From NCBI GenBank assembly GCA_010015585.1, contig ML975172.1: DNA of 20,156 bases, one strand, 5' to 3'. Both the position numbers and the translations under genes were made by a program. Numbering within the stretch: the first letter of the stretch is position 1; each line of letters starts with the position of its first letter. This document shows, piece after piece, positions 1,474-20,095 of the stretch. The notes beneath the pieces are model-generated. The model saw only the letters and a list, made by a program, of their open reading frames with translations, ran no database searches and was not told the origin of the DNA. Source of the stretch: Eremomyces bilateralis CBS 781.70. Its lineage: Eukaryota.

Positions 1474-3171
1474 TCATAGAACATATCTAAAATATGGGTT
1501 CTCCTTGTCCGTCAGATCTTGGAATGCCAGATTTGCTCTTTCTTCTTCGCTACCTACTACGGCGTCTCTTTTCCTATTCTCGGACGAGAGAACGAAGTAT
1601 AGGGCAACGGAAGCAGCCATGCAGATGACGTAACTGGAATTGTTAGAAAGTGAGCGGTATATAGAAAAGGAAATTTTACCATATGATTAAGCCTGTCCAT
1701 AACTCTGGATAATGTTGTGACTTCGACTGCGACCGCACTAGTTGAGGTCCGATGATATTTCCTACACAGTAGGCAACGAAGATGGTGGCTGCTGTAAAGC
1801 TCTTCTTGGTATGGCCTGCCACGTTAGACATTCCGAGTACTATGGTGAGACTAGCGACGCCGCCAAAAGAGCCAGTGATAGAATAGCCGACCACAGGTGC
1901 TACTGCATGGTAAGTCCAGGAGCTTTTCCAGATTATTGCGCAGCCTGCGATGACGGGAAGACAGCAGAGTAGCAGCATGATGATTCGGATATTTGGAATC
2001 TTAGAGCCTAGGTAACCGGTGAGAAGGATGGTAATGAAAGCGAGGCCGCCTAGCGGGAATTGAAAGAGGATGGATTCTAGGGTGTCCCAGCCAAAAGTTG
2101 AAACAATCAGGGGTCCGAATCCACTGACAGCTCCGTTTACTGTGTATCTGATAGTGACATTAGATTTTTATTGAGATATATGAGTGGTCACTTACGCAGA
2201 TGCCATCATTATTGCTATAAGCCAAATTTTTAAGTCCATCACAGCTTCTTTCAGCTGTGACTTCTTAAACTTTATGCACCTCACACCAGTTTGGCCATAC
2301 CGCAGCCTTTCAACTGCTGCAAACCTCTCTTCTTTTGTCAAGAACCAAGCCGATACGGGAGAGCTTGGTATCAAAAAGCAGAATAATCCAAAAAAGAAAG
2401 TCAAGGATCCTGCAAGTAGATAAATGTACTGCCAGGAATGTAAACCACCAGTAGTGATCTGTGCAAACGCATAGTTCAACGCACCACCCAGTATCCCGAA
2501 AAGACCCGTACTGCTGATCCACCAACTCTGACGCATCGACTGCTCCGCTTGAGTATAGTAGCTAGATACAATGCACATGAACCCGGTTGGGATAACGCTC
2601 TCCACGAATCCAAGGAAAAACCGCTGAGCATACAGACCCTTGTATGTTGTGACAGCGGCTGTCACCATACAGACGCCTGCCCATAGAATAACCAAAAATC
2701 CGAGGACGCGGCCGACGTTGAAACGCTGCAGCGCGTAGCTCATAGGATATAAGCCCGCCAGCATTCCAAAGTAAAAGAGGGAAGTGGCCCAACTGAGTCG
2801 TGTGGTGTCGACCTTGGGCGGTGTAGTCGATTTGTCGACGAGACTCAGTTCAAGGTCAGTGGTCATGCCGAAGAGGACTGCGGAACCGAGGATCGCTTTA
2901 TCGTAGAAGACGAGGCCAACTGGGAGTTCATTAGCTATGGCTTCAGTCACTTTTCGAATGTTCGCTTGCATCCGAAGACCATGGCGGGAATTAAGAAAAG
3001 GTCGATCTTTCGCACTGCCCTGGCCATCACGACTGGATCAATGTTTCGTTCGACCTCTCCGACCATAGTGATTGCCACGTCCTTTTCAATATCGGCATGA
3101 TGGTCATCATAATCCTCCGGATATCGGACGGCATTTTGAGTGGTGGGAGGACCACCCTGGTGTTCTGTCAT
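1474..3171 (-). CDS. MFS transporter, anion:cation symporter (Dal5/allantoate permease-like) family; 4 exons: complement(join(1474..1633,1680..2147,2196..2919,2970..3171)), 517 aa
   Basis: Spliced translation gives family-typical motifs: VRKIDLFLIPAM, FYDKAILGSA, SLFYFGMLAGLYP, QRFFLGFVES, AWFLTKEER, NVAGHTKK, YCVGNIIGPQ and C-terminal FQDLTDKENPYFRYVL*. Introns 2920-2969 (GC..AG), 2148-2195 and 1634-1679 (GT..AG) keep frame; total 1554 nt. Substrate cannot be inferred. Confidence 0.95.
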
Positions 3172-3265
3172 TGCTAAAATCGTTGTTTCAAGTGAATTCG
3201 CAATCCTTCGACGGAGGCCCTTAAGTTGAAGCGCTGTTGACAGTAGGTACCGTACTATTGACGAA

Positions 3266-3440
3266 TATATAGGAAAGAAATTGACAATCCATAATAATCT
3301 TTTAAATGTGTGATATTTGCCGAGTATTGATGAAGTGAAGGCCGTACTAATGCAACCTTATGCAGCAAGCTTCACGTGTCGCAGAAATGAGGTTGATTAG
3401 GCGGGCGCCACGTTATGCGTCTCCTCCGGAAAATGAGTCA
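3266..3440 (-). promoter_or_regulatory. Putative promoter elements of the MFS gene: TATATA (3266-3271), TCACGTG E-box (3372-3378), TGAGTCA AP-1/Gcn4-type site (3434-3440)
   Basis: Exact consensus matches 95-270 nt upstream of the ATG at 3171. Motifs this short can occur by chance. Confidence 0.3.
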
Positions 3441-4325
3441 GGCGTAAACCTGTAAGCGGAATGTTTTTGAATAGATCTCGAGTATTCTCGATGTGTCGAT
3501 AGAGATGCTAGCAGCCTCTATCCGCTATCAGTATCAGATATCCCCTTTCTAGTAAGTAGTAGACGGGCAGATTTCAGTTTAAACCACATTTGGCCACTCC
3601 TTGCAAGCTTACAGGAAGAAACAATGCGAACAGTGACTCGGATGTTTTGGTCAGTGCGCGAATCCTTGTCGACCGTCAAACGAATCCTGCAGTAGTCTGC
3701 ACCACTCACCAGCGAAGGGGATGCGCGGATGGGAACACTACCCGTCCTAGGGCACCGGCTACCGGCCACTACTGTACGCCCCCCATGACCCTACATGGAC
3801 ACTTCCGCGATCAACGGTCGTGGGACAATGGGTCTCAGGCCCCAGACGGCCCTGGGGGCATTCCTCGACGCCTGGACGGGCGGTCCTAGGCGTGGGATTT
3901 GGGGGAGGGTGTGGGCAAGGGAGGCAAGAGTAGAAACGGCTGTTCTCTATAGAATTGTTAACTTTCTAGGAACTAGTTGTCTTGGTTGTAAATCATTCCT
4001 TAATCGAATCTGTTGTTTGACAGTGTCGATTGGGTGTCTGATGAACGAGCCCCATTTCAACGTGGCACCAATGATGAAAGCTGCCGTTAGATAATCCTGG
4101 ACTGGCCAGCCTTCCTCAGCCTTATCCCTGCACTTTAGTCTTTATACAGAGTCGTCCGCACGGTGATGAGATAATTTAAGCGTCCCCATTTTCGAGACTA
4201 GAGTCCTACGTTACGTTTACTGCGAGGAGAATATGAACGCATTGGTCAAGGCAGACAACGACTCTGCGTCCCTGACCAGCCTGTATATCCTCCTCATCGC
4301 CACATTCGTCGGACTTTGAATCATC

Positions 4326-5391
4326 ATGCCCAAGGGAAGTGTTCGTGGGGTTCTTTGGGATGCCAATGATGAGTTCAACCCAGCGGAAGCATGTGGTTGG
4401 GACTTTGAAAAGGTAATCTAGATATCTCTGAAGCTAAATTAGTGTTATTGACAAGAGATAGATTATAGCGTTCGGACAAAGCGTCTACGATTCGCCCGAG
4501 AAGTTCGGCATAGGCATTACGGACGGGCCAGATGATATAGCATTCAAGAATTATCTCAATCACTCGTGGCCGGTTGTCAAAAAGACACTGGAATGGAGAT
4601 GGGTGTTTTGCGCCGGAGATCCAGCCAAAGGGTCACCCGGGTGGATGTTCGTGGGATGGGATAAAATCCAACTGCCAGTATGCACGGTTTACGATTTCTA
4701 TGCATGGCTTCTCTCAATAGCGATTGTCCCAAGAGCCGCGGCCAACAGTCGGAACTTCTATCTTCCTCTTCTTGTCTGCTTTGGAAACTGGTGCTTCAAG
4801 ATCGCGGAAAATACTTCCGGCTTATGGATGCATTCTCCGTTCATGGTATCAATTGTACGATACCACTCCCTAGTCGAGCCTATAGTTCCTAGGGCATTCC
4901 TGGGAGTAACCATGCCAGACTCGAAGGCATTTGAAGAAGATCGTGACCGAACTCAATACGTGCATGCGATGCGACAGAACGACATCTACCGATATACGTC
5001 ACTTGTGCCGAATCCGAGGAATCCAGACAATAACCAACCTTTTGGGCGCTGTGCTGAGACATTCTTTTGGATGTTTGCTAAAAAGTAAGTCGAGTAGCAT
5101 TTATTACCTGCAAGATCGGCGAGATTCGATGCGCTAACTACATGTACTGTCATTAGCCCATCTGTTTGTAATTTGGAAAAATCCGTGTACGGAGTAGCAC
5201 TCCAGATACGAGAGGGCGAGTACTCGCTGATCCCAGTCGATGAATACCAAATGGGGAGGGAATTGAACGCTCTGAGAGATCCTTGCCGAAAGTCTTGTCA
5301 ATATCTGGCTGCACAAGTGAAGTCCTCCTGGGCTGGCGATGGCTGGCGGGAGAGCTTCGACATTAATCTTGCAATTGATCGCCAGTGGTAA
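4326..5391 (+). CDS. Uncharacterised fungal protein with putative Zn-dependent deaminase-fold signature; join(4326..4412,4462..5084,5157..5391), 314 aa
   Basis: Introns GTAATC..TAG (4413-4461) and GTAAGT..GCTAAC..TAG (5085-5156) join an upstream exon and ORFs 4603-5088 and 5173-5391 in frame (945 nt). The product contains FGRCAET (5041-5061) and LRDPCRKSCQYL (PC..C at 5281-5298). The gene model is well supported; the function is inferred. Confidence 0.8.
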
Positions 5392-5752
5392 AATCGAGGA
5401 CGGATGGTTTGAGCTGTGTCGTGTTGGGATGACGTTTGTGCACTCTCTTAAGACCCTCATGCGCTCTCTGACCCTACTTCACACCGTAAGGCCGTCCATG
5501 AGTATGTAGCGATGGCCAGTCTAATTAATCGTCACGGCCTAAATTTATACCTCTATTACCAGCGTTCCGGATCCTAAAACTACTATCGTTCAGCTCTAAA
5601 GAACTCTACAAAAGACTATTCGAATTAGTCCCCATTTGGCTGCCAATCCTTTCTAAAAAAAAGATCGAGATAGTGGTGTCCCGCAGCTACAAGTGCCAAA
5701 ACCTTTGTCAGATCAAACTCGATGTCCCAGTTCAAGTTGCGTTCGCCATAAA

Positions 5753-6439
5753 TCACTCCAAGACAGGGGTCTTTTCACGTTCGGGTTCGCTGTCCAAAAA
5801 CTCAAGCACAGGGCCATCATCTGCACATCTTTTCCAACTCTTTAATAACAAGCTCAGGCTTAATTGGCCATACTCCTCGTCCAGCCGGCGCGGAGAACTC
5901 GTGGGGTGAAGGATTTCTCCCTGCCGATGGTTGAAGCTCTCATTACCCAGGCGTGCAGCCTCATTCATAGCCTTTGCATGCCAGTGCTTGTACTGCTGAA
6001 AAGGGATTCCATCCAGAGAGGTTGTAAATGGTATGAGCCTGCCAGAACAAGAAAGGGGTTGGTTGGTTTTTCTTCAGCAGAGATGCATTCAATGACAGTG
6101 ACCAATTTCCATGTCATGGCACTTCCGATGATTGCATTTGCTTCAGGAAAAGCAGTTATAACCTTCTCAACCTTCCCCTGGCCAATCTGAAAGCCTGTCT
6201 CATCCATGTTGTAGACGTTGCATGGGCGGATGTGGTGGCTTTTGATGACACTCTCCCAGCGATCATAAAAAGCCTGCACTATCCATTGCAATATCTTCAG
6301 CCTGTATATGCTTAGGATCCATGGCGTAGTAAGGACCTACGCAATACTCGTGCAACGTGATATTTTTATTTTCACAGCGTCGGTACTTGGTGACAGCTGC
6401 AAGGATTCCACTCTCCTGATCATCTTCCTCAGGGGGCAT
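5753..6439 (-). mobile_element. Degenerate, internally deleted pogo/Fot1-type (Tc1-mariner superfamily) transposase relic
   Basis: Fragments in shifting frames: MPPEEDDQESGILAAVTKYRR (N-terminus, ATG 6439), NVYNMDETGFQIGQG (first catalytic D), KLVTVIECISA, LQPL/DGIPFQQYKHWH (third D, after a frameshift) and GVWPIKPELV. These are colinear with the element at 18476-20095. Element ends are not clearly identifiable. Confidence 0.9.
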
Positions 6440-10410: not shown

Positions 10411-13400
10411 TCACACAACTAGAAAATCCCTCAGCTCCCCATTAATTCTCTCCATCTCCCGACCGATACGTTCGACTTCTGAAGACACTTGTCTCTGCAA
10501 CTCGGGATATCGTTCTCCTTCCACCGCCGCATTTTCATTCCTCAACATATCCAGATCCGCCTGCACCGCATCCAGATTGGAAGCAACGACTTCTTGAATT
10601 CTCCTTTCTAGGTCATCTACCCACCAGTAAAATTTTTCACTGCAACGCTTTCGGAGCTCTATGAATAGCTCTCCATCACCAAAGCGGCGACTGATGATAT
10701 CCTTGCGCCGTCCATGACTACCGCGTCCTGTTGAATCCATAAGCGATGCGAGATAGAGGTTGAGAGAATGCGGATGAACAGACCTCCTTCGAGATTGCAG
10801 CTTCGGTAGGATCCTTCCATAAGCTCGCCAATAATGGAGCTACGTATCCCGGTGAAAGTGTCTCTTTCGATTTGTCTACTCGATGTTAGTAATTGAAAGC
10901 CGTTTAGATCCAAGCTCCCATACCGAAGATCGTCCTCAAATGACTCTTGTGTCCGTTCTACTTCATCAAGAAGGAGACCACGTCTATGTTGGAGCGTGCC
11001 ACCCAAGGTTCTTATCGTGTTGACTGGGATAGCGGTGGTGGTAGCTGAGTAGCGGTTAGCTATGAGCGAGCAGTGTAATAAAAGAAAGTTTGACATACAT
11101 AGGGACTGGAGTATGGTATCCAAAGTCTCTCCAATCAGACTACAATCCTGAACATTCTGATCTTCGAGACCTTGGCATAGTCTATCCCAATGCTCGGCCA
11201 TAGTAGTTACCATCGCCTGCATCGCCTCGTCATTCCAACAGCGAGATCCAACCTTTTCCGTAGAGTGATCCCCGTAATTTCGGCAAAAGGCTGCATAGGT
11301 ACCTTCGTCATAGTTAGAATGTATTGCAAGGCGGGTGGAGATTGGTGTTACTGTGATGCCACTGTCACTTGTTAGTCTTCATTGCGTCTACTAATATCAC
11401 TGTGAAATGCTAGTACTAACCTCATTCCAGTCGAGACTGGCGGCTTTAGCAGCGAGGGTCCATGGGTAGCTCTGGACTCCTGTAACGAATAAGCTTCAAA
11501 GCATAACTGACCGGAGTAGCTCACGAACTCATGTTTCGAGGTATAAGCTCTTTAAATGTTCTCTTCCTGATCATTACGTTTTTGCTTAAGCCCGAGCCTG
11601 GCATCGTGAGCTTATGCGGATTTTAGATTAGCTAACATGCGGCACTTCGAGCCAGTCAGTGTACTTACAACCAGGAGTTGCTTGTCGACATCATCGATCA
11701 GATTGCGGATAGCTTCTTTTCGTCCAGCGTCAATACCTCCCGCACCGGATTGAACCCATAGCTCAATAGACCCGAGCAGTGCTGGAATCTCATGTTCGAT
11801 GTATCCTTTTGCAGCACGGAGCTGACTTTGCGCAACAATGGAGATACAATGTTTCCGAATTCCGGGAATGCCGCTTAGGTCCATGTATGGCTGGGCCTTC
11901 TCCCGTGGTTTCTTTCGAAAGTTCCAATAGTCCGTGTTGCTTACGCAAAACGTGGTTAACTCGATGTTAGGGAATTTTCCATTGTATTCCTCAGTCAGTT
12001 TCCGCATGACATTACGACTTCGGGTTGTCATGAGATGCGATTTCAGCCTAGTGCAGCAATCAGTGGGCGTCCATACATCGTTGGGCAATACACCTACTGG
12101 AACTTATGGCGTTCCTCCGATGCCCTGAAATGACACAAATATGTGAGCAGAACCTTTAGACAATAAGTAGTATGTGACTCACTCGAAGGATTTCTTGTCG
12201 TTTTTGAGCTGCCAATACTCCTTGCTGTCTTCACCATCCATTTCCTCAGGGTTATCGCCTTCAATATCTTCAAGCTCACTGTTAGTGTGACTGATTCGGT
12301 CGCGATCGGTTTGAAGCTCTTCCATCAATCCATTGAGAGTTGTTCCGTCTTCACCACGCCAATCGCGCCTCGCCTCATCTGCTCGAATATCCTGTCGCTT
12401 ATCAGTGCACGGCTACAATATCCGATGAAGTTGAGCCGAGGGATAATCCAATAGGGATAGAGAACACGTACATCGGCCTGTGTACAAATTATTCCGATAT
12501 TCCTCAAGTTAACTCTTCGGGCAAGCTGGAGTACATCCCGCACACCAACATCAGTCGTGGCACGACCGATCTTGCAGACGGCAAAGATCTCGTCACAATT
12601 CAGCATGTAACGTTCGGTGACTTTCGTTCGAGCTGAATTGATGTCCCTTAGGCCTGGAACTGGGATCAGTATATAGTTGAGAACGAACGTTTTTCGGATT
12701 TTGGGAGGACTACTCACCAGGAAGATCGGCTAAGATAAGACCTTTACTCAGGATGTATGCTTTCAAATAGATGCTGTTGCCATTAGCGCTAACCCCGCAA
12801 ACGTTAGACTTTGGCACATACCTAATCTTGCAAATGAATGGCCATGCTCCTCCATCCCGTTCGGAGCTCGAAGTCAGCTCCATCAATCGCGTGGAGCACG
12901 CTTCAGCAGTGGTAGCCATATGTCTCCTTTGGGCATTGACATCTCCGTCACGCAGGGGGGTATCCAACTCCTTAGCCCAATCAAGAAGCCTATTCAGGGG
13001 TGTTGCCATTGGCTCATCCAAGAGAAACCCTTCATTTCGCCTCAGACGAGTCCCAAATGCAGCCCGGAAGGTGTCTCGAGCAAGGGCAGCGTGTTCCCTG
13101 AAACCCTCGCCCCCGTCCTCAGGATCAGACTGGTCGCGGAGATGGTATCTCCGATAGCCATCTAGCAGGTCACGGAATTGGTCGGTAATCTCAGCCTCGT
13201 TGAAGTAGTCCACCACGATAATGAAATCATCTCGATTGTGGTGGTGGAACTCGGTCACTACGCATGTACACGCAGCGCCGCTGTTGCTCTATCGTAATGG
13301 TCAGCATCGCAAGTCAAGCAAGGTTGGGAGAACAATATCGCTACTGACAGTCTTGGCCAAACCTTTGATATCCAACAGCGTATTCAGGAGACTACTCTTG

Positions 13401-14388
13401 CCTAGAAAAGATATGATTATTGGCACATTCGTAAAGACACGGAAGGGTACTCACCTGCCCCCGAGTCTCCAATGAGGCCGACTGTACGGGTTGAGGGACA
13501 TTCAAATGCACTCAAGTTCTGTGCACGCTCATAGAGACTAGCGAATTTCGACCCCGACTCAGTATGTAATGGTAACTGCCGCAACACCGATACCAAACCA
13601 GCGACGAGTCCCTTCGCGTCTTTATATCCACGCTGGAAGTCCTGACGATGGAAGGGCTCCTCTGGAGGCTGTTCATCTTCGACCCTATAAGGGTCCTCGT
13701 TTATACGAGAACTAGATCGCCGTCGAGATCCTGACCGTCGACGCCTGGTCGAATCAGGAGTCGTACTCTCTGGGCTCAGCGAGTTGCGAGGGGTGCTGGG
13801 CGTTGGAGTTGGGAAATTGCGTTGTGACCCACTTGACCTTATCCCCAAGTTTTGCATCCGGCCCGCAATGCTGCTTGTGGAGGATCCTGGGTTTTGCTGG
13901 TGGTCGGCCGCATGACTTATTTCAGCTAGGGACAGTGTTTGGAACCCTCCTGCAATAGAGCCGGTGCTCCCCTGACGAGTTGGAGTAGCATTTTCGAATA
14001 AGTTCAGAGCACGAGTGCGTTCCGTTAGGCCATCTGTTGTAGAGCTTGGCATCGGGCTTCCCCTACTTGGTGAAGCCGATGACGAAGTCCCCGTTCCATA
14101 TTCCACCACAGGGGGCGGACTAACGGAGAATGAAGGGGTACGAGAGTGAACGGCGGGGCTGCTATGACTCGATGATGTCTCTTGGTCTCGTTCAGTGGAA
14201 GGAAGAGGCGTGTCTTTCCCGAAAGGAAATGGAGCTGTGGACGAATAGCTAGTAAATAGTCCAGAACGTGGTGTACTTGGATTGATCAATGGGCGACTCG
14301 ATGGACTCTGGGTCGGCTCGGATGTGGATAGCGATAAATCAGGGTCCATTGTAGTAGTTAGGCTGAATGATAAATTAGTCCCGTTCAT
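10411..14388 (-). CDS. Large dynamin-superfamily GTPase (Dynamin_N-type G domain; fungal SLIP-GC/NUGGC-like family), multi-exon, with a long S/T/P-rich N-terminus and helical C-terminal stalk
   Basis: After splicing introns 13402-13454, 13289-13348, 12774-12821 and 12654-12717: G1 GLIGDSGAGKSSLLNTLL, G2 region GAACTCVVTEF, G3 LILADLPGLRD and G4-like ICTQAD. Downstream exons carry LSGIPGIRKHC and a coiled-coil C-terminus ending at TGA 10411-10413. The start is 14388 or 14349. Exon boundaries below about 12500 are only partly resolved. Confidence 0.85.
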
Positions 14389-15216
14389 ATCCCTCTTATT
14401 CTCTTGTGGTCATACTTACTCGCGTCACAATGCCAGACAAGACACCGACCGCTTGACTCAAATATCACCAGACTAGGACTTTCAAGAAACACGACTCGCT
14501 AGTTGAATGAGCAAATAGAAACGCAAACGGAAAATAACAGACCTCAAAATATTTATGAGGAACTACGAGGAAAATAGACGTATATATTACTTGACCCCGC
14601 AATGAAGGATGCGTAGGATCGAAACGGAGATGTAACAGAACATTGCGGCACAGCAGCCAGATCACCCAGATGAATGGATGGCGGCGCTTATCGCGACATT
14701 CGGTTAATAGCTTCTGACCAAAACGTTTCATTGATCTCTTTCTCAATCATATTTATTGCACACTAGCTTATTTAGTAATATTTCAGGTATCAGAAGTGTA
14801 TCACCACTATACGGATCTTGATCCGAGTTGTGGTGATTGTTCGTCAAAACATCAATTCATTATGCGCGATATCGAAACAAGGCCTCAGGCATAAAAGGAG
14901 AACAACAATGATGACAGGCATTGCACTCAAAAGGTGAATCCATCTCTCCATAGCTTGCGACAAGGACGACAGTTGCAAAGAAAAATGTTTTAACGGACAT
15001 GCGTGCTTGAGCTTTCAGGTCTTGGCATGATAAGCACTGCGAAAAGCCACAGCACGATGTTGCAGAGGCAGAGGGAGAGGCCTCTGGGCAAGTGCTCTCA
15101 CGGAAGATTAGGAGGAACTGCTGTCAAAAATAGCGAGTGTAAACTCTGGGCGTACGTGTATCTCTGCCTCCTGATGATTCAAGAGTAGAGATGACATAGG
15201 TAGTATACTAAGAGAA

Positions 15217-18390: not shown

Positions 18391-20095
18391 ACGGCCACAC
18401 CTTCCGGTGTAGGTGCTCCCACCCCAAATCATCATTTCGAATCAAATCATCAATTTTGAGGCTGTCGACTATCTGCTAGATTTCTGGTAACAGATCAATG
18501 AAAAACCCTAAGTTTTCCGTCTCATCAGCTGTATCCCGGGTCGTATATGCCTCTGTAGATTTTTCTGCCCGCTTTCCCCGTTTCCAATCGCGTTGTATCT
18601 TCCTACTAAGGGCTGCTCGCTCCTCCGCGCCCCTTGCCTCGATATGGCGCTTTGCCTGAGCAACTTCGACTGCACCCGTATGACCGAGGGGGAGTTTGAC
18701 CTGTCGGCGGCTCTTCTGCTTCTTGTCCTTCCTTTGGTGGCGTTGGATGGTATTCACGACACCCTTGAGCTCTTCGAGCAACTCGATTGACTCGATATTG
18801 GCCTGGGTTGCTTGGCGGATTCGACGTTAGAGTTTCTGACTTGAGAGTATTACCTCGGGCGTATTGAGAATATTTTCCTGTCTCCGGCGTGCCGTACGAA
18901 TAGTATTAGGTGGAGTTATATCAGGCGTCGCCGTAATACTTGAGGTTTGTGGCGGTGGAGACCCACGGTAGATTTGAAGCTCCGACTCCATATCTTGGTC
19001 CAGATTGACTCGGTGTGTAAGAGTTGACAAGACGATCTCCGGATCTAATGGCCAAAGACCTCTGTTTTTGAATGAGTGTCGAATCGTACGTCCCTTGAAG
19101 GCGTCTTTACGGATTTTCGGCATCTCTTCGAGAAATGAAGCCTTATCAGCCGCTGAGAATCCCTACCTCGAAATCTGTGTATTTGACCGCCGGAAATAGT
19201 GCTTTAACGCAAGAAACGGCTTGCCGTCAAGAGGCTGAAGGAAGTGGGTTGTATGAGGAGGAAACGGAAACAGAATAATATCAACCCCGTGGCAGAATTC
19301 GACGAAATCACGCGTAAGATGCGAGCCGTGGTTATCCATAAGGAGAAGTCGTTTTTCCCCTTGAGCCACCCGATTCTGAGTATGCTCATGGAAATGCTGG
19401 ATCCAATCGAAGGCAATAAGGTCATTTGACCATCCCGAAGTAGAGACGTTGATACGCCAGTCGTCCGGGACTCGGATATCTTTATACCACCGCTCAAGAT
19501 GATTCTCGCCCTTCAAGATAAAATACGGCGGAAGAACGAAGCCGTCGGCCGCTATACACTCGATATCCGTAACTAATTCGCCTGTTTCTGTACTCGCACT
19601 GCCTCGGTTTGCTCCCGGTTGGAAACTGACTACCTTTTGACGTTTCCCTTCGCCTAAACGGAAGCCGCTTTCGTCGAAGTTATATATATTCTTTCGTTCG
19701 ATCTTATGCTCTTCGATCTGCCGTTCAGGGAGAAGAAACCAATGCCGAATATACCCAAGGTCCTCGGAATAGAGGCGGTCGTCTTTGATTGGCTTTTGAT
19801 CGATAAGAGGAAGAGAATGGCGTTTAATGAAGTTGTATTTCTATCCTTTACCGACGCGTTGAGGCGCGTCGGCCTCGTTTGGGCTATTCCGGCGGAGGAT
19901 CGAGTTGGCGCAGTTCTCAATTTCCGCTAGGTTAGGAGGCGCTCCCCAATTATCGAGTAGGTTAATCCAATCGAGCAGAGCTTTCTCTTGAGACTTATCG
20001 AGCTTCGTGTTCTGTAGATATGGGTTGCGGTCGGCGTAGGAGGTCCGTTTCCCTTCGAGTCTGTTGTGAAGACGACAAAAGTAGAAGACTGATTA
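18353..20095 (-). mobile_element. pogo/Fot1-like DD35D DNA transposon with inactivated transposase (reading frame 18476..20092, three premature stops, 5' end missing)
   Basis: One frame runs RLHNRLEG..QEKALLDWINLLDNWGAPP..ANSIL..VGKG*KYNFIKRH (CENP-B-type HTH), NIYNFDESGF, IECIAADG, SGWSNDLIAFDWI, LLLMDNHGSH and PPHTTHFLQPLDG (35 residues between the last two D), then GLWPLDP. Stops at 19841-19843, 19163-19165 and 18827-18829. Confidence 0.95.

Follow-up and report, generated by a model that had tools for sequence, protein, structure and literature searches.

A spliced gene of Eremomyces bilateralis encodes a candidate zinc deaminase with a YwqJ-like core

We analysed a 20,156-nt stretch of contig ML975172.1 from Eremomyces bilateralis CBS 781.70 (assembly GCA_010015585.1), referred to below as the window, in which a gene at positions 4326-5391 had been predicted to encode a divergent enzyme of the deaminase fold. 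Conserved zinc-site residues, a structural model and a profile match to YwqJ-like deaminases supported this prediction. By analogy with the superfamily, we lean towards the view that the product would be an active zinc-dependent hydrolytic deaminase of the CDA superfamily, with a YwqJ-like core, a polynucleotide substrate and a role in intracellular conflict. Judged from its sequences, the family is small, diverges fast and is seen only in Dikarya fungi.

Gene structure and product

A spliced form of the gene exists. A 1251-nt contig of one public run, whose kind was guessed as RNA, corresponded to window positions 4190-4410, 4460-5084 and 5157-5561, with no other letter differences. The joint from 4410 to 4460 skipped 49 nt (GT..AG, with the cut shifted by +2), and the joint from 5084 to 5157 skipped 72 nt (GT..AG). 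No contig of the run covered the introns, a result that cannot prove that unspliced forms are absent. The spliced product has 314 aa and matched the public protein P0001 letter for letter. The gene had been taken to be unannotated; this was incorrect, as NCBI holds the identical product under the name 'hypothetical protein P152DRAFT_461454 [Eremomyces bilateralis CBS 781.70]', with the gene annotated and no function given.

Two candidate zinc-site motifs, FGRCAET (residues 223-229; CAE at 5050-5058, exon 2) and DPCRKSC (residues 278-284; 5278-5298, exon 3), were expected to fall in one protein only after splicing. This was confirmed: the contig skips both introns, and the pattern [CH]xE-x20-100-PC-x2-3-C was found in no unspliced frame of the window. 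Exon 2 encodes the conserved N-terminal module and, of the core, helix 1, strands 1 and 2, the insert with its helix and the CAE helix.

The transcript leader, starting with the contig at 4190, also contains an upstream open reading frame (ORF) of 28 codons at 4233-4319 on the + strand (ATG at 4233, TGA at 4317-4319), which stops 6 nt short of the main ATG (4326) and whose C-terminal half is hydrophobic. Upstream ORFs are common in fungi, and this one could dampen translation of a potentially harmful enzyme. A second contig of the same run (157 nt, depth 3.3) lies just upstream of the transcript start, at 4028-4182 (+). It omits one base at 4141, perhaps because of a difference between strains or an error in assembly.

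Conservation of the zinc-site motifs in a fungal family

Pfam gave no match for the separate exons, the whole protein (E<=10) or the 46 homologues described below, and NCBIfam gave none for 17 of these homologues. The PDB, searched by sequence and by profile, gave no match, and a word-indexed protein search found nothing beyond the protein itself. An exhaustive HMMER search of 1.84 billion representatives retrieved 46 proteins at E<=0.001 (five at E<=1e-10), which were 17-38% identical to P0001. All named records among them were fungal, from ascomycetes (Eremomyces, Pyrenula, Periconia, Cyphellophora, Chaetothyriales sp., Mycoblastus, Aspergillus udagawae and A. vadensis) and basidiomycetes (Fibroporia, Leucogyrophana, Infundibulicybe and Marasmius). 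We aligned all 46 proteins (A1). The 17 that continue past the CAE helix to the Cys pair formed a second alignment (A2), the other 29 ending before the Cys pair or lacking the motif. A third alignment of 45 rows (A3) was A1 without P0022, P0027 and P0041, which lack the motif, and with P0047 and P0048 added.

The motif pair arose by chance in 692 of 200,000 protein shuffles (0.35%); its presence in a single protein is therefore only suggestive, and conservation must carry the case. Conservation of CAE and of PC-x2/3-C had been proposed as a check, and C226, A227, E228, C280 and C284 were each present in 17/17 full-length homologues, which are 17-29% identical to P0001. The only other invariant positions of A2 were P131, G224 (43/45 in A3) and G249, and both P279 and R200 occurred in 16/17 rows. 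In A1, R200 was kept in 44/46 proteins, the first Cys in 45/46 and the Glu in 41/46. D107 and S114 of the N-terminal region were nearly invariant. The three-residue Cys spacing, singled out as unusual, stood for the window protein; in the family it is one of two forms, C-x3-C in 6/17 full-length members versus C-x2-C in 11/17, and the C-x3-C members with names are all ascomycetes. Across the 17 members, the (P)C-x2-3-C motif starts 45-95 residues past the CAE Cys.

Fourteen of the 46 proteins (P0005, P0007, P0009, P0010, P0014, P0016, P0017, P0020, P0021, P0028, P0030, P0031, P0034 and P0042) end exactly 12 residues past the first Cys, which corresponds to the exon 2/intron 2 border of the window gene. 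The sequences suggest that the position of intron 2 is probably conserved in the family and that many public models are cut there, so that they lack the Cys pair; this would partly account for the family having been overlooked.

Predicted structure

A single-sequence AlphaFold model was useless, with a predicted local distance difference test score (pLDDT) of 30. The model built from A3 reached a pLDDT of 84.1 and a predicted template-modelling score of 0.88. Its core elements follow the order helix 125-147, strand 157-165, strand 172-178, helix 187-207, CAE, helix 229-235, strand 248-253, PC and helix 284-291, in agreement with the helix and strand order of the original prediction. An insert (residues 179-225) includes helix 187-207, and 25 residues separate strand 248-253 from P279. 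The long N-terminal extension that had been foreseen corresponds to residues 1-122 of the model, ahead of the core, and had no known family match in Pfam.

Deaminase rows dominated an exhaustive structural search, the best two matches being cytidine deaminase and blasticidin S deaminase. Foldseek returned only a weak list (E 0.56-7) that included USP, LapG and papain-like protease chains, and the ESM Atlas structure list contained UCH and transglutaminase clusters at a template-modelling score (TM) of 0.25-0.26. Together with the chance rate of the motif pair, these matches are what speaks for a protein outside the deaminase fold, with another metal site or a thiol active site on a novel or papain/transglutaminase-like fold. 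We give this explanation the least credence. A2 contains no invariant His or Asp able to pair with a Cys nucleophile, deaminase rows lead the exhaustive search, and both motifs, along with strand 3, fall in register on those of YwqJ domains, far above shuffled controls.

In the ESM Atlas, a Chordata cluster named 'uncharacterized protein isoform X1' (349-364 aa) ranked third in nearness by language-model features (0.92, with 190 of them shared), and it also appeared in the structure list at TM 0.43-0.45. This cluster may be a vertebrate relative of the fungal family.

Profile comparison with deaminase clades

In a protein language-model search, the nearest clusters with a name were YwqJ-like, at 0.79 for the whole protein and 0.82 for residues 150-314, values that serve as leads only. 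We collected comparison domains from bacterial genomes (PF14431, PF00383, PF14441 and one PF14428) and compared the alignments by hhalign. The YwqJ set comprised 15 bacterial domains of one phylum. A3 matched this set with a score of 37.0 (P 8.6e-5, probability 60%, 74 columns), the best of seven comparison sets; in this match the G-x-CAE motifs, the Gly residues of strand 3 and the PC..C motifs of the two sides coincided. In 60 column-shuffled controls, the score averaged 11.6 (standard deviation 2.3, maximum 20.1). The 17-row alignment gave a weaker match to YwqJ (28.2-28.8, P 0.0014-0.002, with probability 14% at P 0.002), a score reached by 0/100 shuffles.

Scores of A3 against other sets were 23.3 for CDA (P 0.012), 21.8 for OTT_1508 (at the Cys pair only), 20.6 for guanine-deaminase-like domains, 15.4 for TadA and 14.7 for RibD. 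The C-terminal block of the 17 rows matched 25 PF00383 domains with P 0.0085. As a yardstick, YwqJ itself scored 37.3 against CDA, 25.0 against guanine-deaminase-like domains and 18.4 against TadA; the distance of the fungal family from YwqJ is thus similar to that of YwqJ from classical CDA.

Among 301 genomes drawn from the phylum to which a Bacillus genome belongs, none had PF14431; PF14441 was found in 0/301 Actinomycetota and 0/5 mixed genomes. The family profile found nothing in five bacterial genomes, each with PF14431 matches. A homologue search seeded with YwqJ domains yielded only near-identical Streptomyces-type proteins among the best 120 of 1,591, with no fungal bridge.

Proposed function

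If the superfamily is a guide, one Zn2+ would be held by three Cys residues, Cys226 where helix 2 begins and Cys280 and Cys284 where helix 3 begins. Glu228 would shuttle protons to and from a zinc-bound water, which would attack the amino-bearing carbon of the base. We infer that this base would lie in a polynucleotide, with C-to-U conversion in RNA or single-stranded DNA, and that Arg200, in the insert that separates strand 2 from helix 2, may help hold the substrate. A polynucleotide is favoured because the family has an affinity to toxin-type clades, carries large inserts with a conserved Arg beside the pocket, is patchily distributed among fungi and has diverged strongly. No signal peptide was apparent in the first 30 residues, as had been anticipated; the enzyme would therefore act within the fungal cell, against foreign or selfish nucleic acids and not in nucleotide salvage. 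An intracellular conflict role has been proposed for mushroom YwqJ-like proteins (PMC3239186).

Several observations weigh against this assignment. The nearest solved structures act on nucleosides or blasticidin S, and Pfam detected no nucleic-acid-binding domain in the protein or its homologues. The model has no strands after helix 3, so that the canonical strands 4-5 are missing. PF14431 matched 0/46 homologues (E<=1) and did not match P0001 (E<=10), and the His residues invariant in the bacterial YwqJ domains (H54 and H129 of alignment A4) are not conserved in the fungal family.

Some of these points would fit a zinc deaminase of the same fold acting on a free nucleoside, base or small molecule, such as a cytidine-like antibiotic, in detoxification or secondary metabolism. 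We regard this as a possible, if not probable, alternative. The two best structural matches are enzymes of this kind, both of which use CxE, as does the fungal family (PMC3239186); the protein stands alone, and Pfam found no nucleic-acid-binding domain in it; and an MFS transporter and a P450 are encoded nearby. However, the profile score was higher for YwqJ-like toxin domains than for CDA (37.0 versus 23.3), and long pocket inserts together with lost C-terminal strands are traits of toxin-type clades (PMC3239186). The Arg of the CDA-type 'PCxxCR' is also absent, most members reading PCxNC, and the neighbouring genes lie on the opposite strand, with no cluster shown.

The missing strands 4-5 could instead belong to a deaminase fold without deaminase activity, either a zinc-stabilised binding or regulatory pseudo-enzyme or a scaffold for other chemistry. 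Non-deaminase activities are also hosted by the fold (PMC3239186), and the activity of this family is itself assigned by analogy. We consider such a protein quite improbable, since the catalytic Glu is kept in every full-length homologue and in all but five of the 46, whereas inactive deaminase paralogues typically lose it, as in Tad3, which lacks the E of HxE (PMC3239186 Table 1).

The proposed polynucleotide deaminase could be taken further, as the founding ascomycete case of an unrecognised, Dikarya-wide clade of toxin-derived polynucleotide deaminases. Its members would be intracellular C-to-U or other base editors, or mutators, directed at transposons, mycoviruses or non-self nuclei, with their own N-terminal targeting module and possible vertebrate relatives. 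We think it unlikely that this wider picture holds in full. If it did, AID/APOBEC would be joined by a further eukaryotic mutator lineage, and base editing would gain a compact new scaffold; if the enzyme acts on nucleosides or an antibiotic only, the interest would be modest. Toxin-derived deaminases of nucleic acids have repeatedly been turned into editors and mutators of eukaryotes (AID/APOBEC, DYW), and they supply base-editing enzymes. A spliced transcript-like form, a complete catalytic signature, occurrence in fungi only and the failure of Pfam, NCBIfam and Foldseek to detect it make the family a candidate source of mutator or editing activity in fungi and of a small new deaminase scaffold.

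Genomic surroundings

The features of the gene and its neighbours are listed in Table 1. Over 78 aa, the transposase fragment downstream of the gene shared 44% identity with the DDE_1 ORF near the window end; the deaminase gene thus adjoins a decayed transposon. The split ORF set with DUF7605 also matched Dynamin_N, though weakly (E 2.6e-4, which falls short of the curated cut-off), and its sequence suggests a multi-exon dynamin-like GTPase gene. No repeats of at least 40 nt were found in the window. Nothing supports a functional link of the neighbouring genes to the deaminase.

Table 1. Features of the deaminase gene, its product and its surroundings (window positions).
Feature	Position	Strand	Remarks
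Spliced transcript-like contig	4190..5561	+	5' leader, coding sequence and 3' untranslated region; public run, kind guessed as RNA
Exon 1, coding part	4326..4412	+	Residues 1-29; ATG at 4326; phase-0 junction
Intron 1	4413..4461	+	49 nt, GT..AG
Exon 2	4462..5084	+	Residues 30-236 and two bases of codon 237
Intron 2	5085..5156	+	72 nt, GTAAGT...GCTAAC (branch-like site)...TAG; between CAE and PC-x3-C motifs
Exon 3	5157..5391	+	Last base of codon 237, residues 238-314; stop TAA at 5389-5391
N-terminal region	4326..4740	+	Residues 1-122: helices 19-73, beta-hairpin 91-102, helix 105-116
Deaminase-fold core (predicted)	4741..5382	+	Residues 123-312; intron 2 inside span
R200 codon	4972..4974	+	In helix 187-207; putative substrate contact
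G224-R-C226-A227-E228	5044..5058	+	Putative first zinc ligand (Cys) and catalytic Glu, start of helix 2; roles by analogy
P279-C280-R-K-S-C284	5281..5298	+	Putative second and third zinc ligands, start of helix 3; roles by analogy
MFS transporter	1676-3357	-	Upstream of deaminase gene
Decayed pogo/Fot1-type transposase fragment	5965-6336	-	Downstream; stop-bounded, NMDETGF-type motif
Dynamin-like protein with DUF7605	10411-14409	-	Split ORF set about 5 kb downstream; DUF7605 E 1.1e-35
P450	15510-17146	opposite to deaminase gene	
DDE_1 (pogo/Fot1-like) transposase ORF	19163-19840	-	Near window end

Comparison with known deaminase systems

The deaminase superfamily is defined by [H/C/D]xE at helix 2 and by CxnC (n>=2), usually PCxxC, in the loop and at the start of helix 3 (PMC5889660, PMC3239186). 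In the fungal protein, C226-A-E228 directly precedes helix 229-235, and P279-C280-x3-C284 leads into helix 284-291. The three-layer alpha/beta fold of the superfamily holds a sheet of five strands, ordered 2-1-3-4-5, of which the model of the fungal protein shows strands 1-3.

YwqJ-like deaminases (PF14431) are C-terminal domains of bacterial polymorphic toxins, with basidiomycetes among their hosts (PMC3239186). The Gx[CH]xE signature in helix 2 is a feature of this clade (PMC3239186 Table 1), and the fungal family shares it as G224-x-C226-x-E228. In both, a long insert also separates strand 3 from the Cys pair, with 54 residues from the first Cys to the PC Cys here and 60 in Streptomyces-type domains (hand count). 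YwqJ-like domains are truncated after helix 3 or strand 4, and nothing was modelled past helix 3 in the fungal protein. In contrast, the conserved residue of the insert ahead of helix 2 is Arg200 in the fungal family and His in the bacterial set, C-x3-C occurs in the fungal members counted above, and the fungal protein is longer by about 120 N-terminal residues, which have conserved positions of their own (D107 and S114). It would also be intracellular, and it is a stand-alone eukaryotic protein encoded by a gene with introns, without the secretion or immunity context of the toxins.

Cytidine and blasticidin S deaminases (CDD/CDA clade, PF00383) appeared more distant. PF00383 matched neither P0001 nor the 46 homologues, and hhalign scores to the fungal family were 22-23 (P 0.012-0.018). 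The motif spacing is about twice as long in the fungal family, which also shows no strand 4-5 hairpin and lacks the PCxxCR Arg.

The 'fast-evolving fungal deaminases' of the literature are fungal OTT_1508-like deaminases, PF14441 (PMC3239186). This family model matched neither P0001 nor the 46 homologues. The fungal family has CAE, whereas 11/14 Rickettsiales OTT_1508 domains have HAE, and the fungal family reads L-x-D-P-C, with no GxxK ahead of the Cys pair. Compared with bacterial OTT_1508 domains only, hhalign gave 21.8-23.1 (P 0.017-0.034); A3 and the C-terminal block aligned at the Cys pair only (20 and 40 columns), and the whole 17-row A2 over 65 columns. For the dsDNA deaminase toxins DddA/DddB (PF14428, BaDTF3), the single DddA-like domain found in 1/301 genomes gave no profile signal with A3 (score 11.5, P 0.52), and this lone sequence also failed against the YwqJ and CDA sets, so that its lack of signal says little.

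On its sequence features, we file the family as a putative deaminase-superfamily member nearest to the YwqJ clade. We do not file it as a proven member of PF14431, because Arg200 stands in place of the conserved His and the Pfam model does not detect the family. In the literature on the deaminase superfamily, fungi and base editors, we found no published description of the family, and the Laccaria 'YwqJ-like' protein of PMC3239186 could already be a member. Neither the superfamily nor the notion that fungi have toxin-derived deaminases is new (PMC3239186). What is new here is a family outside Pfam and NCBIfam with its own N-terminal module, an Arg-for-His exchange in the insert and an ascomycete C-x3-C variant.
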